This document shows positions 27,863 to 38,940 of a stretch of DNA of 64,000 nt, piece by piece. A model generated the notes under the pieces. The model searched no databases and was not told the origin of the DNA. It saw nothing but the letters and a program-made list of their open reading frames with translations. The stretch is from Candidatus Eiseniibacteriota bacterium (lineage in GTDB: Bacteria > Eisenbacteria > RBG-16-71-46 > CAIMUX01 > VGJL01): assembly GCA_041946735.1 (NCBI GenBank), contig JBHGAY010000015.1, forward strand, positions 32,001 to 96,000. The letters are read 5' to 3'. Position 1 is the first letter of the stretch. Every line of letters starts with the position of its first letter. The translations under genes and the position numbers were made by a program.

Positions 27863-27892
27863 TTGACGCCCTTCCCCTGGGTTCCCTACTCT
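27863..27892 (+). promoter_or_regulatory. Candidate sigma70 promoter of the dehydrogenase-citrate lyase operon
   Basis: TTGACG-N18-TACTCT. Confidence 0.5.
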
Positions 27893-28013
27893 CTCCTTCG
27901 TTCGCATGCACGGCGCTGCGGCGCCAGGCCGGCTGCCCGCGATTCCTTTGGGGGCCGGGAGGGTCGGGTTGGAGTCAACCGCTTGCGGCGCAAGCGGTTC
28001 GAGGAGGTGGATC

Positions 28014-29195
28014 GTGAAGCGCAACGTCGTGTCGATGCCGGGAGACGGAATCGGGAAGGTCGTCCTCCCCGAGGCGATCCGAGTCCTGGACGCGGTCGGG
28101 TTCGAAGCGAACTACATCCATGGCGATATCGGCTGGGAGTTCTGGTGCAGCGAGGGCAACGCCCTCCCGGACCGGACCATCTCGCTCCTCGAGGAGCACA
28201 AGCTCGGCCTCTTCGGCGCGATCACGTCCAAGCCCAAGGACAAGGCGGAGGCGGATCTCTCGCCAGCGTTGAAGGGGAAGGGGCACGTCTACTACAGCCC
28301 CATCGTCACGATGCGGCAGAAGTTCGATCTCGACATCTGCATCCGCCCCTGCATCGCCTTCGAAGGCAACCCGCTGAACTGGATCCGCAAGGACGGTCGC
28401 GGGAGCATCGAGGAGCCGAAGGTCGACGTCGTGATCTTCCGGCAGAACACCGAAGGGCTCTATAGCGGCATCGAGTGGACGAACCCGCCCGAGAACGTCC
28501 GCGCCGCCCTCGCGAGCCATTCGAAGTGGAAGATGTACCAAAAGGTCGCAGGACCGGATCTCGCCGTGTCGACGCGCGTCATCACGCGCCCAGCCGCCGA
28601 AAGGATCTGCCGCAACGCGTTCGAGTACGCGAAGAAGTTCGGCTACAAGTCGGTGACGATCTGTGAGAAGCCGAACGTCCTTCGTGAAACCTCCGGGATG
28701 ATGGAGTCCGTGGCGAAGCAGGTGGCGAAGGACTTTCCGGGCATCCCTCTCTGGTCGGTGAACATCGACGCGCTCATGATGTGGCTCACGAAGAACCCCG
28801 AGGCGTACGGGGTGATCGTGGCGAGCAACATGTTCGGCGACATCATCAGCGACGGCTTCGCGGGATTGGTCGGCGGGCTCGGGTTCGCATGCAGCGGCAA
28901 CATCGGCCGCAATTGCGCGGTCTTCGAACCGACCCACGGGTCCGCGCCGAAGTACGAGAAGCTTGATCCTTCGATCGTCAATCCGATCGCGATGATCCTT
29001 TCCGCGGTGATGATGCTCGAGCACGTCGGGGAGACCGCGAAGGCTTCGCGGATCAAGAGCGCGATCGCCGCAGTGATCCGCGAGGGGAAAGTCCGTACAT
29101 ACGACATGATGCGGCTCACGGGCGGCCCCGACGTGTTCGGGAAGGGCGCCGTGACCACGCAGCAGATGACCGACGCAATCCTGGCACATCTCTAG
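28014..29195 (+). CDS. Isocitrate/isopropylmalate dehydrogenase family protein
   Basis: MPGDGIG, RQNTEGLY, KPNV, NMFGDIISD, FEPTHGSAPKY, NPIAMILS; GGAGG RBS. Confidence 0.92.
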   Translation: MKRNVVSMPGDGIGKVVLPEAIRVLDAVGFEANYIHGDIGWEFWCSEGNALPDRTISLLEEHKLGLFGAITSKPKDKAEADLSPALKGKGHVYYSPIVTMRQKFDLDICIRPCIAFEGNPLNWIRKDGRGSIEEPKVDVVIFRQNTEGLYSGIEWTNPPENVRAALASHSKWKMYQKVAGPDLAVSTRVITRPAAERICRNAFEYAKKFGYKSVTICEKPNVLRETSGMMESVAKQVAKDFPGIPLWSVNIDALMMWLTKNPEAYGVIVASNMFGDIISDGFAGLVGGLGFACSGNIGRNCAVFEPTHGSAPKYEKLDPSIVNPIAMILSAVMMLEHVGETAKASRIKSAIAAVIREGKVRTYDMMRLTGGPDVFGKGAVTTQQMTDAILAHL

Positions 29196-29270
29196 TCCAT
29201 CGACCGTCTGTCGATCGATCGTCTATTGATCGTCCATCGATCGTCGTCCGTCGTCGTCGGGTCGTCGACC
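29196..29270. repeat. Low-complexity TCG/GATC-rich tract
   Basis: tccatcgaccgtctgtcgatcgatcgtctattgatcgtccatcgatcgtcgtccgtcgtcgtcgggtcgtcgacc. Confidence 0.55.
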
Positions 29271-29307
29271 GGCCGCTCTCCTCGGCCGGCAATGGGGGAG
29301 GTGGAGG

Positions 29308-30525
29308 ATGCCACACGCTGCCGAGGCGGGGCGCCGCGGAGCGGACGTTCGCTCGGACTGCTGGATCTCGATCACGCCCGAGTCCTCGGGCGGCGCGCGT
29401 CTCTCGATCCGGAGCAAGGTCGCTGCGATGTACGGAGGCGCAATCCAGGAGCAGATCGCGTCAGGGCTCGCGGAGCTTTCCATCCGTGACGCGACGGTCG
29501 AGGTCGAGGATGCCGGCGCGCTCCCGTGGGTCATCGCCGCTCGTCTGGAAGCGGCCGCCCGGCGCGCCTACGGGCCAGCGCTTGCCGGGCGCCTGCTCCC
29601 TCCCGCGAGTCCCGGGGCGAGCGCGACGACGGAGCGGGAGCGCTTCCGGCGCTCGCGCCTCTACCTACCCGGCAACGAACCGAAGTTCATGGTCAACGCC
29701 GGCCTGCACGGCGCCGACGGCATCATCCTCGATCTCGAGGACTCGGTAGCGCCGGCCGAGAAGGACGCGGCGCGGCTCCTCGTCCGCAACGCGCTCCGGT
29801 CGGTCGACTTCGGCGCGTGCGAGCGGATGGTCCGGATCAACCAGCTGCCGATGGGCTTCGACGATCTCGAGGCGGTGATCCCGGAGAACGTCCACGTCGT
29901 CCTGATCCCGAAGTGCGAGTCGGCGCAGCACGTGCACGACGTGGAGGCGAAGATCCGGAGCCTCCGCCGCTCCGACGATCCGCAGGTCTTCCTGATGCCG
30001 ATCCTCGAGACGGCGCTCGGAGTCTTGAACGCCTTCGAAATCGCGACGGCGAGCCGGGCGATCGTGGCACTGACGATCGGACTGGAGGACTACACGGCGG
30101 ACATCGGGACCGCGCGCACCGAGCAGGGAGCGGAGTCGCTGTGGGCACGCTCGATGGTGATCAACGCCGCGCGCGCGGCCGGCGTCGCCCCGATCGACAG
30201 CGTCTACTCGGACGTGATGAACACCGAGGGGCTGCGGGCGAGCGTCCTCGAGGCGAAGGCGCTCGGGTTCGAGGGGAAGGGCTGCATCCATCCCGGGCAG
30301 ATCCGCGTGATCCACGAGGGGTTTGCCCCTACCGCGGCCGAGATCGAGCGGGCGACGAAGATCGTTCGCGCGTTCGAGGATGCCGAGGCGAAGGGGCTCG
30401 GGGTGGTGTCGCTCGGAAGCAAGATGATCGACGCCCCGGTCGTGAAGAGGGCGAACCGGACGGTTCGCCTCGCGATCCGCTCGGGGAAGCTCGCGGAGGG
30501 CTGGAGGGACGCGCAGCAGGCGTGA
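29308..30525 (+). CDS. citE: Citrate lyase ACP (CitD)-citryl-CoA lyase (CitE) fusion
   Basis: N-term SKVAAMYG, EDAGALPWVIAARLEAA (CitD-like); RRSRLYLPGN, LDLEDSV, LIPK, GLEDY, GKGCIHP, MIDAPV (CitE). Confidence 0.9.
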   Translation: MPHAAEAGRRGADVRSDCWISITPESSGGARLSIRSKVAAMYGGAIQEQIASGLAELSIRDATVEVEDAGALPWVIAARLEAAARRAYGPALAGRLLPPASPGASATTERERFRRSRLYLPGNEPKFMVNAGLHGADGIILDLEDSVAPAEKDAARLLVRNALRSVDFGACERMVRINQLPMGFDDLEAVIPENVHVVLIPKCESAQHVHDVEAKIRSLRRSDDPQVFLMPILETALGVLNAFEIATASRAIVALTIGLEDYTADIGTARTEQGAESLWARSMVINAARAAGVAPIDSVYSDVMNTEGLRASVLEAKALGFEGKGCIHPGQIRVIHEGFAPTAAEIERATKIVRAFEDAEAKGLGVVSLGSKMIDAPVVKRANRTVRLAIRSGKLAEGWRDAQQA

Positions 30526-30583: not shown

Positions 30584-32143
30584 ATGGCGCAGAAGCTGGT
30601 CAAGAATGCGGTAGGTCGGGAAGTCCCGGTCGAGATCAACGGAGAGCCTGCGGTCGCCTACCAGGGGGTCGGGAAAGACCGGCCGTCCGGACGGCGCGCG
30701 GCGCCGCCGATCGCCACCTGCGCGGACTATCCGGCCGACGGGAACAAGATCGTGCCCGATCTGCGCGCGGCGCTCGAGAAGGCCGGGCTGCGCGACGGGA
30801 TGACGATTTCGACGCACCACCACTTCCGCAACGGCGACCTGGTCGGGAACCGCGTGTTCGACATCGCGGCCGAGATGGGCGTGAAAGACCTGCGGTGGTT
30901 CCCGAGCGCCTCGTTCCCTTGCCACGCGCCGATGATCCGGCATCTCGAGAGCGGCGTGATCCATCACATCGAGGGGTCGATGAACGGTCCGCTCGGCGAC
31001 TACACCTCGCAGGGGAAGATGCGCGGCATGGCGGTGCTCCGCTCGCACGGCGGCCGCTATCAGGCGATCCAGGACGGCGAGGTCCATGTCGACATCGCCG
31101 TCATCGCGGCGCCGGAGGCCGACCCGTTCGGCAACGCGAACGGCCTCCATGGCCCATCAGCCTGCGGCGGCCTCGGGTTTGCCGTTGCCGACGCGGAGTA
31201 CGCCGATCGCGTCGTGGTCGTCACCGACAACCTGGTCCCGTTCCCGTGCGTGCCGTGGCAGATCAGCGGCAACCGCGTCGACTCGGTCGTCGTCGTCGAC
31301 CGGATCGGCGACCCGGCGCAGATCGTCTCCGGGACGACGCAGATCACCCGCAGCCCGGACCGGCTGCTGATCGCCGAGATGGTCGCCCGCTTCCTGGACG
31401 CGTCCGGGATTCTGCGCGATGGCTTCTCCTTCCAGGCAGGGGCCGGCGGGACGGCACTCGCCTTCGCGATCTACCTAAAGGAGATGATGAAGGAGCGGGG
31501 GATCCGGGCCCGCTTCATCCGGGGAGGCTCGACGAAGTACCTGGTCGAGATGCTCGAGGAGGGGTTGACCGATTACATCCTCGACGGGCAGACCTTCGAC
31601 CTCTTCGGCGTGCGCTCGATGGGGACGAACCCGCGCCACGTGAACACGACGCCGTTCACCTCCTACAACTATCACGGCAAGGGGAACTTCGCCTCGATGG
31701 TCGACGCGGTCGTGCTCGGAGCGACGGAAGTGGACGTCCACTTCCACGCGAACGTCGTCACCCACTCCGATGGCCGCCTGCTCCACGGAATCGGTGGATG
31801 GCAGAACTGCCTGTTCTCCGGATGCACGATCCTCGCGCTCCCTTCGTTCCGCGATCGCATCCCGGTGATCCTCGATTCCGTGACCACGTTGTGCGGCCCC
31901 GGCGAGCTGATCGACGTGATCGTCACGGAGCGCGGGATCGCGATCAATCCGCGCCGGACCGACCTGCTCGATGCCGTCCGTGGAAGCGATCTCCCGATCC
32001 GCATGATCGAGGAGATCCAGGCGGACGTCGACCGGATCTGCGGCGGGCGCCCGACGAAGGCGAGGATGGGGGAGAAGGTCGTCGCGGCGATCAAGTGGGT
32101 CGACGGGACGGTGATCGACTCGGTGAGGCAGGTGCTCGCGTAG
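30584..32143 (+). CDS. citF: Citrate lyase alpha subunit / citrate CoA-transferase
   Basis: GLRDGMTISTHHHFRNGD, RSHGGR, FSFQAGAGG, VTERGIAINPRR, DGTVIDSVRQV. Confidence 0.93.
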   Translation: MAQKLVKNAVGREVPVEINGEPAVAYQGVGKDRPSGRRAAPPIATCADYPADGNKIVPDLRAALEKAGLRDGMTISTHHHFRNGDLVGNRVFDIAAEMGVKDLRWFPSASFPCHAPMIRHLESGVIHHIEGSMNGPLGDYTSQGKMRGMAVLRSHGGRYQAIQDGEVHVDIAVIAAPEADPFGNANGLHGPSACGGLGFAVADAEYADRVVVVTDNLVPFPCVPWQISGNRVDSVVVVDRIGDPAQIVSGTTQITRSPDRLLIAEMVARFLDASGILRDGFSFQAGAGGTALAFAIYLKEMMKERGIRARFIRGGSTKYLVEMLEEGLTDYILDGQTFDLFGVRSMGTNPRHVNTTPFTSYNYHGKGNFASMVDAVVLGATEVDVHFHANVVTHSDGRLLHGIGGWQNCLFSGCTILALPSFRDRIPVILDSVTTLCGPGELIDVIVTERGIAINPRRTDLLDAVRGSDLPIRMIEEIQADVDRICGGRPTKARMGEKVVAAIKWVDGTVIDSVRQVLA

Positions 32144-32181: not shown

Positions 32182-33222
32182 ATGCCTGGCCGTCCGGGAT
32201 TCCGGTTTCCGCTCGCAGCCTTGGCGTGCGCTGCCTGCCTCCTTGCCTGTGTTCCCGGCCCGCCGGCTGCGCGCGCCGATTCGACGATCGAGCTGCGCCG
32301 CTCTCCCCTCGTCGACCTCGAGTCCTACCTGCGGGCGCTGGCCGGCGAAGGCGACTCGCTTCTCCCGTCCGATCTGCCGGGGATCGCGCCGGCCGTCGAG
32401 CGGGTCCGGGCGCTGGATCGCGCGCTCGGCAGCCCTCTCGCCTGGGGCGCGCTCGAAGGCAACCTCGTCGGGGTCGAGACGGCGGCCGAGGCGCGCGAGC
32501 GGTTCACGAGCCTTCCCGAGAGCGCGATGGTCGCTCCCGGCCGCAAGCTCGCGATCCGGGCAGAGGCGCTTGCGCTCGCGGATCACCTTGCGGCGCTCGA
32601 GCCGGCGTTCCTCGTCTCCGTCTGGCCCGAGCATCAGGTCGCGATCGATCGCGCCTGCCTGCAGATCGAGCGGGACCTGCTGCCGCGGCAGCAGGAGTGC
32701 TTCGCGCGGATCGAGGCCGACCTCGGACTTACGCCATCCCCCGAGCCGATACCGGTCTATCTGGTCGCGCGGTCTCCCTGGCCGCACGGCGTCACGCACC
32801 GGACCCATCAGGGTGGGGGTGTCTGCTGGATCGGCGCCGACGGCGACTCGGGAGGACTCCTGATCGAGACGATCCTGCACGAAGCGACCCACGCCCTCGA
32901 CGTTCGTTCGCGCGAAGGCGTCCTCGCCGAGCTGCGCGCGAGGCTCGCCGCCTCGCCCCTGCAGGGCAGCCCTTCGCGGCAGCGGGACATTGCGCACACG
33001 CTGATCTTCGTGGAGGCAGCCGAGACGGTGCGCCGCGTGCTCGACCCGCAGCACATCGATTATGGAGAGGCCTCGGGCTACTATGCGCGCGTCGGGCGGG
33101 TGGCCGAAGTCGAAAGGACGATCTGGCGTCAGCACCTCGATGGACGCGTGAGCCGCGAGCAGGCGATCGCGGCGATCGTCGACAGCCTTGCGCCGGCGCT
33201 CGCCTCTCCTGTGGGGCAGTGA
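32182..33222 (+). CDS. Secreted hypothetical protein with HExxH motif
   Basis: Signal peptide; ETILHEATH; GGAGGAG RBS. Confidence 0.7.
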   Translation: MPGRPGFRFPLAALACAACLLACVPGPPAARADSTIELRRSPLVDLESYLRALAGEGDSLLPSDLPGIAPAVERVRALDRALGSPLAWGALEGNLVGVETAAEARERFTSLPESAMVAPGRKLAIRAEALALADHLAALEPAFLVSVWPEHQVAIDRACLQIERDLLPRQQECFARIEADLGLTPSPEPIPVYLVARSPWPHGVTHRTHQGGGVCWIGADGDSGGLLIETILHEATHALDVRSREGVLAELRARLAASPLQGSPSRQRDIAHTLIFVEAAETVRRVLDPQHIDYGEASGYYARVGRVAEVERTIWRQHLDGRVSREQAIAAIVDSLAPALASPVGQ

Positions 33223-33339: not shown

Positions 33340-34572
33340 CTACATCTTCTCGGCGTGCTCCCCTTGCGCCTGCGCCTGCGGTTGGGCCGGACCCTTGCCT
33401 TCGAGCAGGTAGGCGATCTCCGCGTCGAGCGTCTCCTCGCCTCCCTCGGCGAAGCCGAGATGGCGGAAGATCACCCGCCCGTCGCGATCGATGACGAGGT
33501 TGTACGGCACGCCCTCGAGCGAGTAGAGGTCGTGCATCTTCTTGTCGACATCGAGAACGATCGGGAAGGTCGCGCCCACCTTCTGCACGAACTCCCTTGC
33601 GAGCTGCGGGCGGTTGGTGGTCTCCACCGAGAGGATCGTGAAGTCGTCGCCGCCGCGCCGCGCGTAGATCTGCTGCAGGTGTGGATACTCCACACGGCAG
33701 GCGCCTCAGGTCGGATGCCAGAAGTTCAGCAGCACGACCTTCCCGCGAAGCGATGAGAGCGACAACGGCGTGCCGTCGGCGAGGGTCGGAAGGGTGAAGT
33801 CCGGGGCTTCGAATGCGTTCGCAGCGCGCGTCGCTTGGATCGAAGCATCGACATCCGCCATTGATTCGCCCTTCTCCGCGACGATCTTCTCCAGATTCTG
33901 CCGGAGCTTCGGGCTCTCCTGATGCCCGAGCAATGCGACGTAGATCTCGCGCGCCTCGTCGTCCCGTCCGGCCGCATCGAGGATCAGCGCGGCGTGCTCC
34001 TCGATCTCGTCGATCGGCTGGCCGTAGATCTTGCGCGCCTCGAGAATCGGTTCGGCCGCCGCCGCGGCGTCTCCCTTCTTGTAGAGAGCCCATGCATAAC
34101 TGTCGAGCACCGAGGCGATGCCGTTGGAGTCCCCCTCCGCCCGCGCCTTCGCGACCCCCTTCTCGAGGATCGGAACCGCGAGGTCGAGATGCTGCTCGCG
34201 CTCGGCGAGATCCCAGCCGACCGAGTTGTAGGGCGCGGCCGAAGGGAAGTCAGTCTTCAGGAACTGCTGCAAGGTAGATTGCACCGACTCGGGTCGATGC
34301 TCCAGCTCGAGGGGGACGAGTCGCGCATACGCCTCCGCCGCCTGCTCGCTGTGAGGATGCTCCTTCAGAAACTGCTCGAGCGCCGCCATCCTGGCCGATT
34401 CGTCTTCGAGGCCGGCCGCTTGTGCGTATACCGCGCTGTCGGCAGCCGCACTGCCCGTTCCGCCCGCCGTTCGGTTCTCCCCGGAGCAACCGGCGAAGAG
34501 CGGGACAGCGAGCAGAGTCGTGAGCGCGGCCCCGACGATCCATCTCCATTGTTCGACACGCGTCATTTCCAC
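33340..34572 (-). CDS. Lipoprotein TPR + TlpA-like thioredoxin, probable selenoprotein (in-frame UGA at 33706-33708)
   Basis: ORFs 33706-34572 and 33340-33693 are in frame; junction APDFTL...LRGKVVLLNFWHPT-U-GACRVEYPHL; later GVPYNLVIDRDG; LFAGC lipobox. Confidence 0.88.
33673..33700 (-). promoter_or_regulatory. Candidate bacterial SECIS element
   Basis: mRNA CUGC-C-GUGUGGA-GUA-UCCACAC-CU-GCAG; G-starting loop 17 nt 3' of the UGA. Confidence 0.7.
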
Positions 34573-35637: not shown

Positions 35638-36042
35638 ATGTACACAGTCACACGGAAGCACTCCTTTTCCTACGGCCACCGCCTGCGCGAACACCCGGGC
35701 AACTGCTCGCGCTTGCACGGGCACAATGGTGTCCTCTTCGTCACGGTCGGCTCCGACGCGCTCGACGGCGGCGGGATGGTCGTCGACTTCCACGAGATCA
35801 AGCGAACGGTCGCGCGATGGGTCGACGACACGCTCGACCATCGCCTCGTACTGCAGCGTGGCGATCCGGCGGCTGCTCTTCTCCAGGAGGCTGGCGAGGA
35901 GATCCGGGTGGTCGACTTCGAACCCACCGCGGAGAACCTGGCCCGTCACGTCTACGAGGCTCTGACGGCGCTCGGCCTGCCGGTCCGCGAGATCGTGTTC
36001 GAGGAGACGGAGAACTGCCGCGCCTGCTACCGCCCGGGCTGA
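35638..36042 (+). CDS. queD: 6-carboxy-5,6,7,8-tetrahydropterin synthase
   Basis: FSYGHRL, CSRLHGHN, GMVVDF, LDH, PTAENLA, ETEN. Confidence 0.9.
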   Translation: MYTVTRKHSFSYGHRLREHPGNCSRLHGHNGVLFVTVGSDALDGGGMVVDFHEIKRTVARWVDDTLDHRLVLQRGDPAAALLQEAGEEIRVVDFEPTAENLARHVYEALTALGLPVREIVFEETENCRACYRPG

Positions 36043-37517
36043 GCCGACCCGGCCGCGGCCGGCGGAGGTGCGGCGCGCAAGGCGGGGATGCGGGAGGCGA
36101 ACCAACCGGCGCCGACCAGGCAAGCGATGCCGCCGAGCCGGACCGACCAGGGCGCGCCGAAGTGCTGCGCGACGAACCCCGCGAGGAACGAGCCGATCGG
36201 AGCGACGCCGACCAGCGTGAAGCTGTAGATGCTCAGCACCCGCCCGCGGATGGCGTCGGGACTGACCCGCTGCAGGTAAGTGTTGGTCGTGGCGAGCTGC
36301 GTGATCATCGCGCCGCCGGTCAAGACCAGGATCACCAGACTGAGCGCGAAGACCCGGGAGAAGGAGAGCAGGATCAGGCTCGTCCCGAACAGGCCGAGGC
36401 CGATCGTGATCAGCCGGGCCGACCCGCGCGTGCTGCTGCGCGCCGCGAGGCGCAGGGCGCTCGTCACCGCTCCCACTCCGAAGGCGCCCATCAGCAGCCC
36501 ATAGCCTCTCGCACCCTGGTGGAGGATCTCGTCTGCGAAGACCGGAAGCAGGATGGTGAACGACATTCCGAAGATGCTGCTGATCGCGACGGCGAGGAGA
36601 ACGGCGCGGACGCGGACCGTCCGCAAGACGAACGAGAATCCCTCGCTCAGCTCGTGAAGGACGGGCCGGTGGGGACGTGCCCGCGGCTTCTCGAGCCGCA
36701 TAGCGAGCAGGCCCGCGATCACGGGGAGGAAGGAAAGGCCGTTGACCAGGAAGCAGACCGCCTCGCCGGTCGCCGCGATCACGAGCCCCGCGACTGCGGG
36801 CCCGACCACGCGGGCGGCGTTGAAGACCGAGGAGTTGAGAGCGATGGCGTTGAAGAGGTCGTCCTCCCCGACCATCTCGATCACGAACGCTTGGCGGGCT
36901 GGCATGTCGAAGGCATTGACGATCCCCAGGCAGAAGGCGATGACCGCGACGTGATAGACGGTCACCACATCGGAGAAGGTGAGAGCTGAAAGGACGAGCG
37001 CCAGCGTCATCGCGGAGAACTGCGTGGCGACGAGCAGCCGGCGTTTCGGCACCCGGTCCGCGACGACCCCAGCCAAGAACGAGAAGAGGAAGACCGGCAG
37101 GAACGCGGCGGCGCCGACGATTCCTAGCCAGATCGGCTCGCTCGTCAGGCGATGGACGAGCCACCACTGGGCGGCCCCCTGCATCCATGTGCCGATCAGG
37201 GAAATGAGCTGCCCGAACCAGAAGAGGCGGAAATTGCGGTGGCGGAGCGCCCGGAACGTCGCGCGTGCGCCGGCCAGGAGCGGGCGCGGCGGCTCGGGCG
37301 TCGGAGCCGGAGCGGAAATCGGATTCGCCGGCGCGACCGCCGGCATGCGGACCGACCGTGAGACGTCGGCAGCCGAGTGCGAAGACGGCGACGGCGACGG
37401 TGATGGCGATGGCGAGGGTGACTGCAACGGTGACGGGGAGGGTGATGGCGACGGCGAGGTGCGGCCCGGCGCTTCGTTCCGTTCCCCGCCCCGCTGTCCC
37501 TTCCCGCCGTCCACCAT
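36027..37517 (-). CDS. MFS transporter with Ser/Pro-repeat N-terminal extension
   Basis: FRALRHRNFRLFWFGQLISLIGTWMQ, FDMPARQAF, NAIALNS; about 12 TM segments; start uncertain (37541/37517 or further downstream). Confidence 0.88.
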   Translation of the reverse strand: MVDGGKGQRGGERNEAPGRTSPSPSPSPSPLQSPSPSPSPSPSPSSHSAADVSRSVRMPAVAPANPISAPAPTPEPPRPLLAGARATFRALRHRNFRLFWFGQLISLIGTWMQGAAQWWLVHRLTSEPIWLGIVGAAAFLPVFLFSFLAGVVADRVPKRRLLVATQFSAMTLALVLSALTFSDVVTVYHVAVIAFCLGIVNAFDMPARQAFVIEMVGEDDLFNAIALNSSVFNAARVVGPAVAGLVIAATGEAVCFLVNGLSFLPVIAGLLAMRLEKPRARPHRPVLHELSEGFSFVLRTVRVRAVLLAVAISSIFGMSFTILLPVFADEILHQGARGYGLLMGAFGVGAVTSALRLAARSSTRGSARLITIGLGLFGTSLILLSFSRVFALSLVILVLTGGAMITQLATTNTYLQRVSPDAIRGRVLSIYSFTLVGVAPIGSFLAGFVAQHFGAPWSVRLGGIACLVGAGWFASRIPALRAAPPPAAAGSAQPGR

Positions 37518-37722
37518 GTTGTCCGCCGCCTCCCCACGCATGATGGGTGCATTGTAGCGGCATGGCCGGCGTCGATGGAGCGGCGAAGCAGTCGGATCCT
37601 GGGGCGGAGGAGGCGGATCCGCAGGCGGATCTGCTGGGGCGCCGGCGCAGGTGGGGAGAGGCGAGCGACGGCTCCGGGAAGGGGGTATGCTCGCCGCGGC
37701 GAGCACGAGGGAGGAAGGGAAC

Positions 37723-38940
37723 GTGGAGCGTCGGACGCGGGATTCCGAGGCGGGGGGCGGGGACGTCCGCCTGCAGGATGAGCAGATCGATCTCTCGACC
37801 CGAGAGGCGAGCGACGAGCAAGGCGGAGTTCGCGAGTTCCGGCGCCGCTTGCTCGCCTTCGGCTTCGGGATCGTGACCCTCTCGATCATCGCGCTGCTCG
37901 TCGCGATCTACCTTCAGCTCATCTACCAGCTCCTCTGGGGCGTGGCATTGGCCATCCTCTTCTATCCCCTGCATCGCAAGATCCTCCGGCTCGTGCACGG
38001 GAGGACTTCCCTGGCCGCGACGATCAGCACCGCGCTGTCGATCGCGATCGTGATCGTTCCGGCGGCGCTGCTCGTCTTCAACCTCGTCGCGGAAGTCCAG
38101 GACCTCTGGCCGCGGATCGAGAACGTCGTTGGCGACAACGCCTACCAGCAGGTTTCGGAATGGCTGGAGGACTCTCCGCTGCGCTCCGTGGTCCATTGGG
38201 CGCTCGGGCCCCAGGCGGGGACCGGCCCCGAAGTGCTCGAGGAAGAAGTGCGCAAGGCGGCGCTCTCGCTGCAGGTGTTCCTGCTCGAGCAACTGCGAAA
38301 GATCACGCGCTCCGTCCCGGCGTTTCTGATCAAGCTCGGCATCACTCTCGTCACCTTCTTCTTCTTCCTCAAGAACGGGCCGGGATGGTCGAAGCAGGCG
38401 CAGCGGGGGCTGCCGCTCGCCCAGGAGCACTCCGCGCGCCTCTTCCGGATCGCCGAGCAGACGATCAACGCCGTGTTCCGCGGAGTCGTCCTTACGGCGG
38501 CGACGCAGGCGGCGCTTGGCGGGCTCGGCTACTGGGTCGCGGGGGCGGAGGTGCCGATCCTCCTCGCCCTGGTCACCTTCATCGCCGCTCTGATCCCGTT
38601 CGTCGGTCCGGTCTTCGTCTGGCTCCCCGTCTCGATCGGGCTGCTCCTGACCGGCAAGACCTGGGCCGCGATCGGGCTCGCGGTCTGGGGAACGTGCGTC
38701 GTCAGCCTCGTCGACAACGTCCTGCGACCCTGGCTGATCGGCCGCGAGATCCAGCTGCCCTTGCTCTGGCTCTTCCTGGCGATCGTCGGCGGGCTCAAGC
38801 TCTTCGGATTCCTGGGCGTGCTCGTCGGGCCCGCCGCTCTCTCGCTCGCCGTCGCCTGCTTCCGGATCTACATGGAAGCGCGGCGCGAAGACCACCACGA
38901 GGAGCGCCAGCCGGCAGAGGAGAACCCCGCTGCCCCGTGA
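37723..38940 (+). CDS. AI-2E family transporter
   Basis: LIPFVG, VDNVLRPWLIG, GGLKLFGFLGVLVGP; start uncertain. Confidence 0.88.
   Translation: MERRTRDSEAGGGDVRLQDEQIDLSTREASDEQGGVREFRRRLLAFGFGIVTLSIIALLVAIYLQLIYQLLWGVALAILFYPLHRKILRLVHGRTSLAATISTALSIAIVIVPAALLVFNLVAEVQDLWPRIENVVGDNAYQQVSEWLEDSPLRSVVHWALGPQAGTGPEVLEEEVRKAALSLQVFLLEQLRKITRSVPAFLIKLGITLVTFFFFLKNGPGWSKQAQRGLPLAQEHSARLFRIAEQTINAVFRGVVLTAATQAALGGLGYWVAGAEVPILLALVTFIAALIPFVGPVFVWLPVSIGLLLTGKTWAAIGLAVWGTCVVSLVDNVLRPWLIGREIQLPLLWLFLAIVGGLKLFGFLGVLVGPAALSLAVACFRIYMEARREDHHEERQPAEENPAAP

Follow-up and report, generated by a model that had tools for sequence, protein, structure and literature searches.

The window analysed here is a 64,000-nucleotide stretch of contig JBHGAY010000015.1 from a Candidatus Eiseniibacteriota bacterium, and its minus strand carries a reading frame (33340..34572) that encodes a predicted redox protein and is broken by a single TGA (33708-33706). 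An earlier reading of the same letters, which we call the original prediction, had joined two annotated open reading frames (ORFs) across this TGA and proposed an exported selenoprotein of ~410 aa, with selenocysteine (Sec) encoded by the TGA, that gene-calling pipelines would split in two. The frame was indeed found to be open apart from this one codon, and in the public records (NCBI/nr and Logan) the gene is present as two proteins, P0002 (286 aa, N-terminal) and P0268 (117 aa, C-terminal). The proposed length held approximately, but the GTG at 34572 (from which the TGA is codon 289) is a less probable start than the ATG at 34566 (from which it is codon 287), because the latter is closely preceded by GAGAGGTGG, a Shine-Dalgarno-like run; the likelier product would have 408 aa. 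The residues flanking the TGA read VVLLNFWHPT-U-GACRVEYPHL, and the positions of the gene and of the features described below are collected in Table 1. The genome assembly is a draft of the metagenome type (72 contigs, 94.8% complete, 68% G+C), and the TGA appears without difference on contigs from three runs of three studies, two of which may be the source of the assembly and the third of which is not a possible source; the alternative of a sequencing error, raised by the original prediction, was not borne out. The stretch was not found in any RNA run, a result that is neutral either way.

When 60 relatives were searched in all six frames with stops tolerated, 17 full-length orthologues were obtained, the window's own gene included. 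TGA occupies the same column in all 17, and the 105-122 codons that follow it are open and conserved in each; besides the window's gene there are 16 such read-through genes, each its orthologue along the whole length. The active site reads F-W-H-[PY]-T-U-[GS]-x-C-R in 14 of the orthologues and F-M-[SQ]-P-T-U-[GR]-P-C-V in the three distant ones. Paralogues encoded in the same genomes have the canonical FWATWCGPC, with the first Cys aligned to the U column, and paralogues in relatives match [NDS]FW[AGS][ST]WCxxC in the same register as the TGA gene. The TGA therefore lies where the original prediction had placed it, at the first redox Cys of a TlpA/ResA-type motif; the accompanying view that the WHPT-U-GAC site is unusual did not survive the comparison, as WHPT-U-GxC-R turned out to mark the whole subfamily and is not particular to this gene. 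Of 206 genomes from the phylum, 20 matched at E<=1e-30, all 20 with TGA and none with Cys, and the matches were confined to four coded families (f1, 5/5; f2, 6/13; f15, 3/3; f14, 5/5; 0 elsewhere).

In a collection of 5.8 billion proteins, the 19 closest relatives besides the window's own fragment are pieces of 283-297 aa with 47-58% identity, called 'hypothetical protein' where the source gives a name, and 38 truncated pieces align up to a terminal ...NFWHPT. The sole full-length Cys form in this collection is P0019 (NFWHPTCGPCR, 431 aa, 39% identity, 92% coverage). When a library clustered at 50% identity was used, F[WM][HSQ][PY]T was the end of 21 of the 150 best representatives, and the full-length Cys forms with FW[HF]PTC were P0154 (NFWHPTCDDC) and P0184 (NFWFPTCGPC). 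Metagenome DNA was scanned with the codon left open as TGN; at least 119 stretches matched and 80 loci were fetched, 11 of which belonged to the family and were in frame; 10 of these have TGA and one has TGC, a 10:1 ratio that describes a sample and is not a census. The other 69 loci, many of them from gut metagenomes, were out-of-frame chance matches and were dropped. A pattern scan of reference genomes returned 57 weak Cys-bearing loci (best, 33% identity over residues 254-371); its query was the active site back-translated with Cys, which is blind to TGA forms, and for this reason the scan gave Cys relatives only. The original prediction had looked to homologues for Cys or TGA at this column, and they conform to it, with TGA in all orthologues and Cys in more distant homologues.

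Just 3' of the TGA, a GUGUGGA/UCCACAC hairpin with a G-starting loop 17 nt from the UGA and a CUGC/GCAG extension had been reported and likened to a Sec insertion sequence (SECIS); we found the hairpin as described, and the likeness holds as well. In the part of a recent review that sets out the bacterial SECIS (bSECIS) model, the loop has 3-9 nt, the stem 4-16 bp, a G falls in the first two loop positions, the spacing is 16-37 nt, and the minimum free energy (MFE) is <= -7.5 (PMC13188914). The window's hairpin lies within every one of these limits, with the loop GUA, a stem of 7 bp, a spacing of 17 nt and an MFE of -15.9. Across the 17 genomic orthologues, the upper stem is paired in 118 of 119 cells of the alignment, and changes on both sides occur in 4/7 pairs. 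When the 10 metagenome members enlarge the set to 27 sequences, pairing holds in 98.4% of 189 cells, double changes are present in 20 cells and are compensatory in 4/7 pairs, and the covariation score was reached by 0 of 500 shuffles; when the register was slid as a control, 28-73% of cells were paired. In the loop, G and U do not vary. The second base of a GUG/GCG codon (Val/Ala) in the 5' arm covaries with its partner in the 3' arm, the third base of a CCA/CCG codon (Pro), with CG in 16 sequences, UA in 11 and unpaired bases in none, and because changes at this third base are synonymous, the covariation cannot arise from protein constraint alone. It is the conservation and covariation across relatives, and not the folding energy, that place the hairpin beyond chance, and these comparisons argue that it is under RNA-level selection. 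L107, the sole Cys-form relative whose DNA was examined, has no such hairpin.

The genome also contains the Sec machinery on which the original prediction had made its reading depend. One tRNA-SeC with the anticodon tca was identified by ARAGORN among 47 tRNAs, and selA (479 bits), selB (349 bits, with positions 2-575 of 581 matched) and selD (388 bits) all scored above their curated cut-offs. The selD gene has its own in-frame TGA at ...AACAG-U-ASK and, judged by its sequence, is itself a selenoprotein gene. Two further redoxin genes with an in-frame TGA, L220 and L221, encode thioredoxin-fold proteins with lipobox signals, and 16 nt downstream of the UGA their hairpins have the loop AGUUC, in the same place as A-GUA-U in the window's gene; added to the latter, they bring the lipid-anchored redoxin selenoproteins predicted for this genome to at least three. 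A search with the NF053656 family returned L220, on contig C30, and did not return the window's locus. We consider it very probable that the two database proteins are the product of one selenoprotein gene in which UGA 287 is read as Sec.

The predicted protein begins with MTRVEQWRWIVGAALTTLLAVPLFAG-C27. Lipoboxes follow the consensus [LVI..][ASTVI..][GAS]-C, and the N-terminus is a lipoprotein signal by this pattern, with lipidation predicted at the Cys. The lipobox Cys column is aligned in 14/17 orthologues (13 with [GAS]-C and one with T-C), and the three distant orthologues have an uncleaved transmembrane anchor in place of the lipobox. No twin-arginine motif was found in the signal peptide, and the genome encodes lspA (125 bits) and lgt (189 bits). 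An AlphaFold2 model based on the 17-sequence alignment (predicted local distance difference test (pLDDT), 89.6; predicted template modelling score, 0.81) shows the signal peptide as an N-terminal helix, then a helical domain that belongs to the tetratricopeptide repeat (TPR) class. All 17 family members match Pfam TPR_12 at E<=1 (best, 7.6e-08), the window's own protein with a sub-threshold score (E 0.019, 15.6 bits vs 30.1), and a profile of 38 family sequences searched against sequences of the Protein Data Bank (PDB) detected the TPR proteins 9qhb (E 2.7e-18) and 7rqf (E 2e-16, the latter over profile positions 86-265); these matches identify the N-terminal domain as TPR. Fold searches with the whole model (Foldseek, VIA) report the redoxin domain only and are silent on the N-terminal domain.

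The domain that spans the TGA matches Pfam PF08534 and PF00578 (Redoxin and AhpC-TSA) at 69 bits each, above gathering cut-offs of 26.6 and 26, and such a match is present in 17/17 orthologues; GSHPx is matched weakly (E 0.002). In the AlphaFold2 model, a strand (277-283) leads to U287, and helix alpha1 (288-304) follows directly. The C-terminal domain was superimposed on DsbE-like 3gl3 of Chlorobium (Z 22.9, root mean square deviation (rmsd) 1.5, 139 residues aligned), ResA 2f9s of Bacillus subtilis (Z 22.5, rmsd 1.6, 138 aligned), CcmG 1kng of Bradyrhizobium (Z 19.5, rmsd 1.8, 134 aligned) and TlpA 1jfu (Z 17.9, rmsd 2.5, 150 aligned), and peroxiredoxin structures rank below DsbE, ResA and CcmG, at Z about 15-17.6. 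Residues E293, P295 and P354 are invariant among the 17 orthologues and presumably correspond to the C-x-x-C-x-x-E-x-P context and the cis-proline loop of ResA/TlpA proteins. Contig C12 of the same genome carries a gene for a CcdA/DsbD-type electron transporter (G000 C12:172215-172850). The lipid anchor, the TPR scaffold and the thioredoxin part with a TlpA/ResA motif that the original prediction had ascribed to the protein all agree with these results.

Some members of the family call for separate mention. The orthologue L019, in genome G013, has a second in-frame TGA in its signal peptide (MASTRLNPKGLRRFATFAL-U-LTMLLAGC), ~3 codons upstream of the lipobox, for which misassembly, mutation or a different start could account. 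On three metagenome contigs, L145, L165 and L172, the family member has T-U-R-Y-C-R as its active site and a stem that contains a G-U wobble (GGA/UUC); in two of them the frame is open for a long way upstream of the UGA (253 and 347 codons), and L172 is truncated by the end of its contig. Their T-U-R-Y-C-R is close to the 'TUGYCR' in the name of NF053656, yet the families are different. One relative has a second, partial match containing a TGA (G005:C9:2799-3035, 56% identity over residues 266-344), perhaps a fragment or perhaps another copy.

The neighbourhood of the gene was compared at the 16 other orthologue loci. A dksA/traR-type zinc-finger gene lies upstream on the same strand, 380 nt from the selenoprotein gene, and queD is nearby in divergent orientation; the dksA-like gene and queD are syntenic at 5/16 loci, and citF stands beside 2/16, in each case within the same taxonomic family only. 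No conserved functional partner gene was present in the 1.5-kb flanks of the 16 loci, and because the recurring neighbours are confined to one taxonomic family, the neighbourhood indicates no client or partner. The convergent 346-aa ORF matched no Pfam family at E<=0.001 and is found beside 0/16 orthologue loci. In the adjoining citrate lyase genes, the beta subunit (HpcH_HpaI) is fused to an N-terminal acyl carrier protein (MdcD-type) domain. Elsewhere in the window, the ORFs 36027-37907 (-) and 37558-38940 (+) overlap by ~350 nt on opposite strands, and both have good Pfam matches, MFS_3 and AI-2E transporter.

Table 1. Coordinates of the candidate selenoprotein gene, its parts, and other features of the window and genome
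Feature	Position	Strand	Remarks
Whole selenoprotein gene (predicted)	33340..34566	-	ATG 34566 start, TAG stop 33342-33340, 408 codons
Alternative start GTG	34572	-	two residues longer than from the ATG start
In-frame UGA, U287 of the 408-aa protein	33706..33708	-	opens the redox motif T-U-G-A-C-R
Signal peptide with lipobox L-F-A-G-C	34486..34566	-	Cys27 codon 34488-34486, predicted lipidation site
TPR domain, residues ~37-250	33817..34458	-	all-helical, 12 helices; AlphaFold2 pLDDT >90 over the range
TlpA/ResA/DsbE-like thioredoxin-fold (redoxin) domain, residues ~253-390	33397..33810	-	spans the TGA
SECIS hairpin (candidate)	33673..33700	-	within codons for C-R-V-E-Y-P-H-L-Q
Hairpin 5' arm GUGUGGA	33695-33689	-	7-bp upper stem
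Hairpin apical loop GUA	33688-33686	-	17 nt between UGA and loop
Hairpin 3' arm UCCACAC	33685-33679	-	7-bp upper stem
Outer stem CUGC / GCAG	33700-33697 / 33676-33673	-	separated from upper stem by a 1x2 internal loop
346-aa ORF	32182-33222	+	signal-peptide-like N-terminus, HExxH-like stretch ILHEATHAL, convergent on the selenoprotein gene
Citrate lyase beta subunit gene	29230-30525	+	first of the citrate lyase genes
CitF gene	30584-32143	+	follows the beta subunit gene
Isocitrate/isopropylmalate dehydrogenase gene	27867-29195		upstream of the citrate lyase genes
selD (L001)	G000:C2:108941-109867	-	apical loop GGA of its hairpin 20 nt downstream of the UGA
L220, redoxin gene with TGA	G000:C30:35886-36323		SAT-U-GYCR, true NF053656 member, 196.7 bits
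L221, redoxin gene with TGA	G000:C24:32877-33227		GG-U-GFC, 52 bits

A lone in-frame stop in a 72-contig draft assembly would look just as this one does if the gene were a pseudogene or the TGA a mutated or miscalled TGC or TGT, but the same TGA recurs in 20/20 orthologues of different genera and families and on 10 metagenome contigs, the 105-122 codons downstream of it are open and conserved, and the base calls are identical in the contigs of the three runs; the probability that we give to such an error is negligible, and the orthologue, metagenome and three-run evidence has already effectively refuted it. Were the UGA a true stop, the 286-aa TPR lipoprotein would be the main or only product, and the redoxin half would be a separate gene or untranslated. 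The public gene calls give exactly the 286-aa and 117-aa products, and Sec insertion is generally inefficient, so that some truncated product is likely anyway; however, strand beta1 (VVLLNFW) and helix alpha1 of the thioredoxin fold lie on opposite sides of the break, the piece after it lacks a conserved start codon, the first strand and the nucleophile, the hairpin covaries via synonymous sites, and full-length Cys forms exist. We regard termination at this codon as the main outcome as very improbable. A SelB-independent possibility, that the UGA is read as another residue, either as Trp by a change of the code or as Cys or Trp by near-cognate suppression, has nothing specific in its favour beyond the ability of Cys to replace Sec chemically and the Cys forms of distant relatives. 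TGA also serves as an ordinary stop in this lineage, terminating 6/17 orthologues, and this, together with the complete Sec system, a selD with TGA at a known Sec site and the conserved SECIS-type hairpin, makes decoding as another residue highly improbable.

Several points nevertheless weigh against the reading of UGA 287 as Sec. The case for selenium incorporation and for a full-length protein is a comparative one only. The folding energy of the hairpin is unexceptional against shuffles in this G+C-rich sequence: the 45-nt fold (-15.9 kcal/mol, z -1.55) was equalled in 15/200 shuffles, and the 76-nt fold had a z of +0.18. The outer CUGC/GCAG stem is weakly kept (9-16 of 17 per pair), and the stem sits in the codons of a conserved peptide, C-R-x-E-[YF]-P-[HRY], so part of its conservation is at the protein level. 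The sequences compared are kin, and the shuffle controls overstate significance for that reason. Two further points concern the enzyme, namely scores below the cut-offs of the ResA, TlpA and DsbE families and the lack of a conserved partner gene in the flanks searched; on account of both, the specific function proposed below is tentative.

If UGA 287 is decoded as Sec, we envisage that a SelB-GTP-Sec-tRNA(Sec) complex would be recruited during translation by the 7-bp GUA-loop hairpin, which starts 10 nt after the UGA, and that the codon would then be read as Sec and not as a stop. The product would be exported unfolded via the Sec translocon, which we propose for a signal peptide without a twin-arginine motif; Cys27 would be lipid-modified by Lgt and LspA, and the protein would be tethered to a membrane, facing the periplasm. 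By analogy with characterised thioredoxin-fold enzymes, the Sec287-x-x-Cys290 pair may cycle between selenol/thiol and selenenylsulfide, with Sec287 attacking a substrate disulfide as the nucleophile and Cys290 resolving the intermediate. The probable source of reducing equivalents is the CcdA/DsbD-type membrane protein whose gene lies elsewhere in the genome, and the N-terminal TPR domain is a likely client-binding scaffold. We infer from this analogy that the protein would function as an envelope thiol/selenol-disulfide reductase. It might instead be a genuine selenoprotein that acts as a peroxidase of the peroxiredoxin (Prx) or glutathione peroxidase (GPx) kind, with Sec attacking a peroxide: AhpC-TSA equals Redoxin at 69 bits, GSHPx gives its weak match, many TPR-redoxin homologues are named 'peroxiredoxin' by their sources, and Sec is typical of peroxidases. 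The nearest solved folds are nevertheless those of DsbE, ResA and CcmG (Z 19.5-22.9), with peroxiredoxins lower, ResA is the best NCBIfam match, and N-F-W-x-x-x-[U/C]-x-x-C-R-x-E-x-P is a pattern that we take to be TlpA/ResA-like and not the PxxxTxxC of Prx; a peroxidase is an unlikely, though not a far-fetched, identity for this protein.

As a broader and more tentative proposal, which we hold to be possible but somewhat doubtful, the gene may represent a subfamily of envelope TPR-redoxin lipoproteins (FWH[PY]T-U-G-x-C-R) that is missing from the catalogues, uses Sec almost obligately and forms a dedicated selenium redox layer. This proposal is based on at least 21 clusters at 50% identity versus 2-3 Cys forms, on a SECIS that lies inside the codons of the conserved C-R-x-E-Y-P-H peptide, and on the presence here of at least three lipid-anchored thioredoxin-fold selenoprotein candidates with an A-GU-N-N loop 16-17 nt after the UGA; if it is true, these features point to a layer of selenium-based redox chemistry in the envelope of cells from a soil phylum that has been little studied. 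Public collections list the gene, like at least 30 of its relatives, as a 'hypothetical' TPR fragment (~285 aa) and an orphan piece (~115 aa), and because no NCBIfam selenoprotein model covers the protein, a curated model with a Sec column would mend this recurrent mis-annotation. The locus contributes a clear bacterial SECIS backed by covariation, together with an exported, lipid-anchored reductase in which Sec appears to be nearly fixed, and it thereby bears on selenium chemistry outside the cytoplasm. It leaves the knowledge of Sec decoding and of TlpA-type enzymes unchanged; the finding is a sound annotation correction together with a well-supported SECIS.

Literature searches did not find a TPR-redoxin selenoprotein among the papers listed, judged by titles and the starts of abstracts, or any work joining Eisenbacteria and selenocysteine, and the motif wordings TUGYCR, WAxxUGC, FWHPTU and HPTUG led to no relevant literature. 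Predicted UxxC selenoproteins of the TlpA/redoxin type, by comparison, are a long-known kind: Table 1 of the review by Zhang et al. 2026 (PMC13188914) has among its entries a thiol:disulfide oxidoreductase that is Prx-like, a thiol:disulfide interchange protein, a UGC-containing TlpA family protein and, from the GOS study, a Redoxin family protein. Representatives cited in that table are HEU0032618.1, MGB1650493.1, WP_010940744.1 and MDE0950781.1. In common with the catalogued proteins, the window's protein has a thioredoxin fold, a predicted Sec at the N-terminal residue of the CxxC pair and a SECIS inside the gene immediately 3' of the UGA, and gene callers routinely cut both short. Its subfamily differs from them by an added N-terminal lipobox and a ~215-residue TPR domain and by the site FWH[PY]T-U-G-x-C-R, where the catalogued proteins have W-U-x-x-C or U-G-C; this separation from the catalogue is by description, and one entry may be the same family.

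A similar relationship was seen with curated models. At curated cut-offs, the window's protein passed no NCBIfam model, the selenoprotein models of release 20 among them. Two of the latter are redoxin-fold models, NF053656 ('TUGYCR motif thioredoxin fold (seleno)protein', redoxin_TUGYCR), which has the T-U-G-x-C-R wording in common with the window's gene, and NF041054 ('ResA-like WAxxUGC motif-containing protein', WAxxUGC_long); the protein scored 17.8 vs 100 bits with the former and 66.6 vs 300 bits with the latter. With its best match, ResA, it did not reach the curated cut-off either (NF002854, 76.2 vs 170 bits), and the same was true of TlpA (NF047696, 50.2 vs 230 bits) and DsbE/CcmG (TIGR00385, 41 vs 123 bits). 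By these scores, the gene is a relative, and not a member, of the ResA, TlpA and DsbE/CcmG families of NCBIfam. It shares with them the fold (Z 17.9-22.9), an active site at the start of helix alpha1 and a predicted extracytoplasmic membrane tether; the C-x-x-C-x-x-E-x-P-like context is kept through the invariant E293 and P295, and a CcdA/DsbD donor in the host genome is a further likeness to their setting. The window's protein differs from them in that the nucleophilic Cys is replaced by Sec and the preceding Trp by Thr, and in that a TPR domain is added. The last of these features is found with Cys in TPR-redoxin fusions (for instance P0029, P0045 and P0072 from Edaphobacter aggregans), which have the same order of domains, TPR and then redoxin, and are named 'peroxiredoxin/tetratricopeptide (TPR) repeat protein' by their sources; their active sites are FWFPACGPC or WATWCxPC, and their identity to the window's protein is ~30-37% over part of the length. 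Because catalogues have included TlpA-like UxxC selenoproteins from 2004-2005 onwards, the gene described here is to be regarded as a new, mis-annotated subfamily and not as a new kind of selenoprotein.

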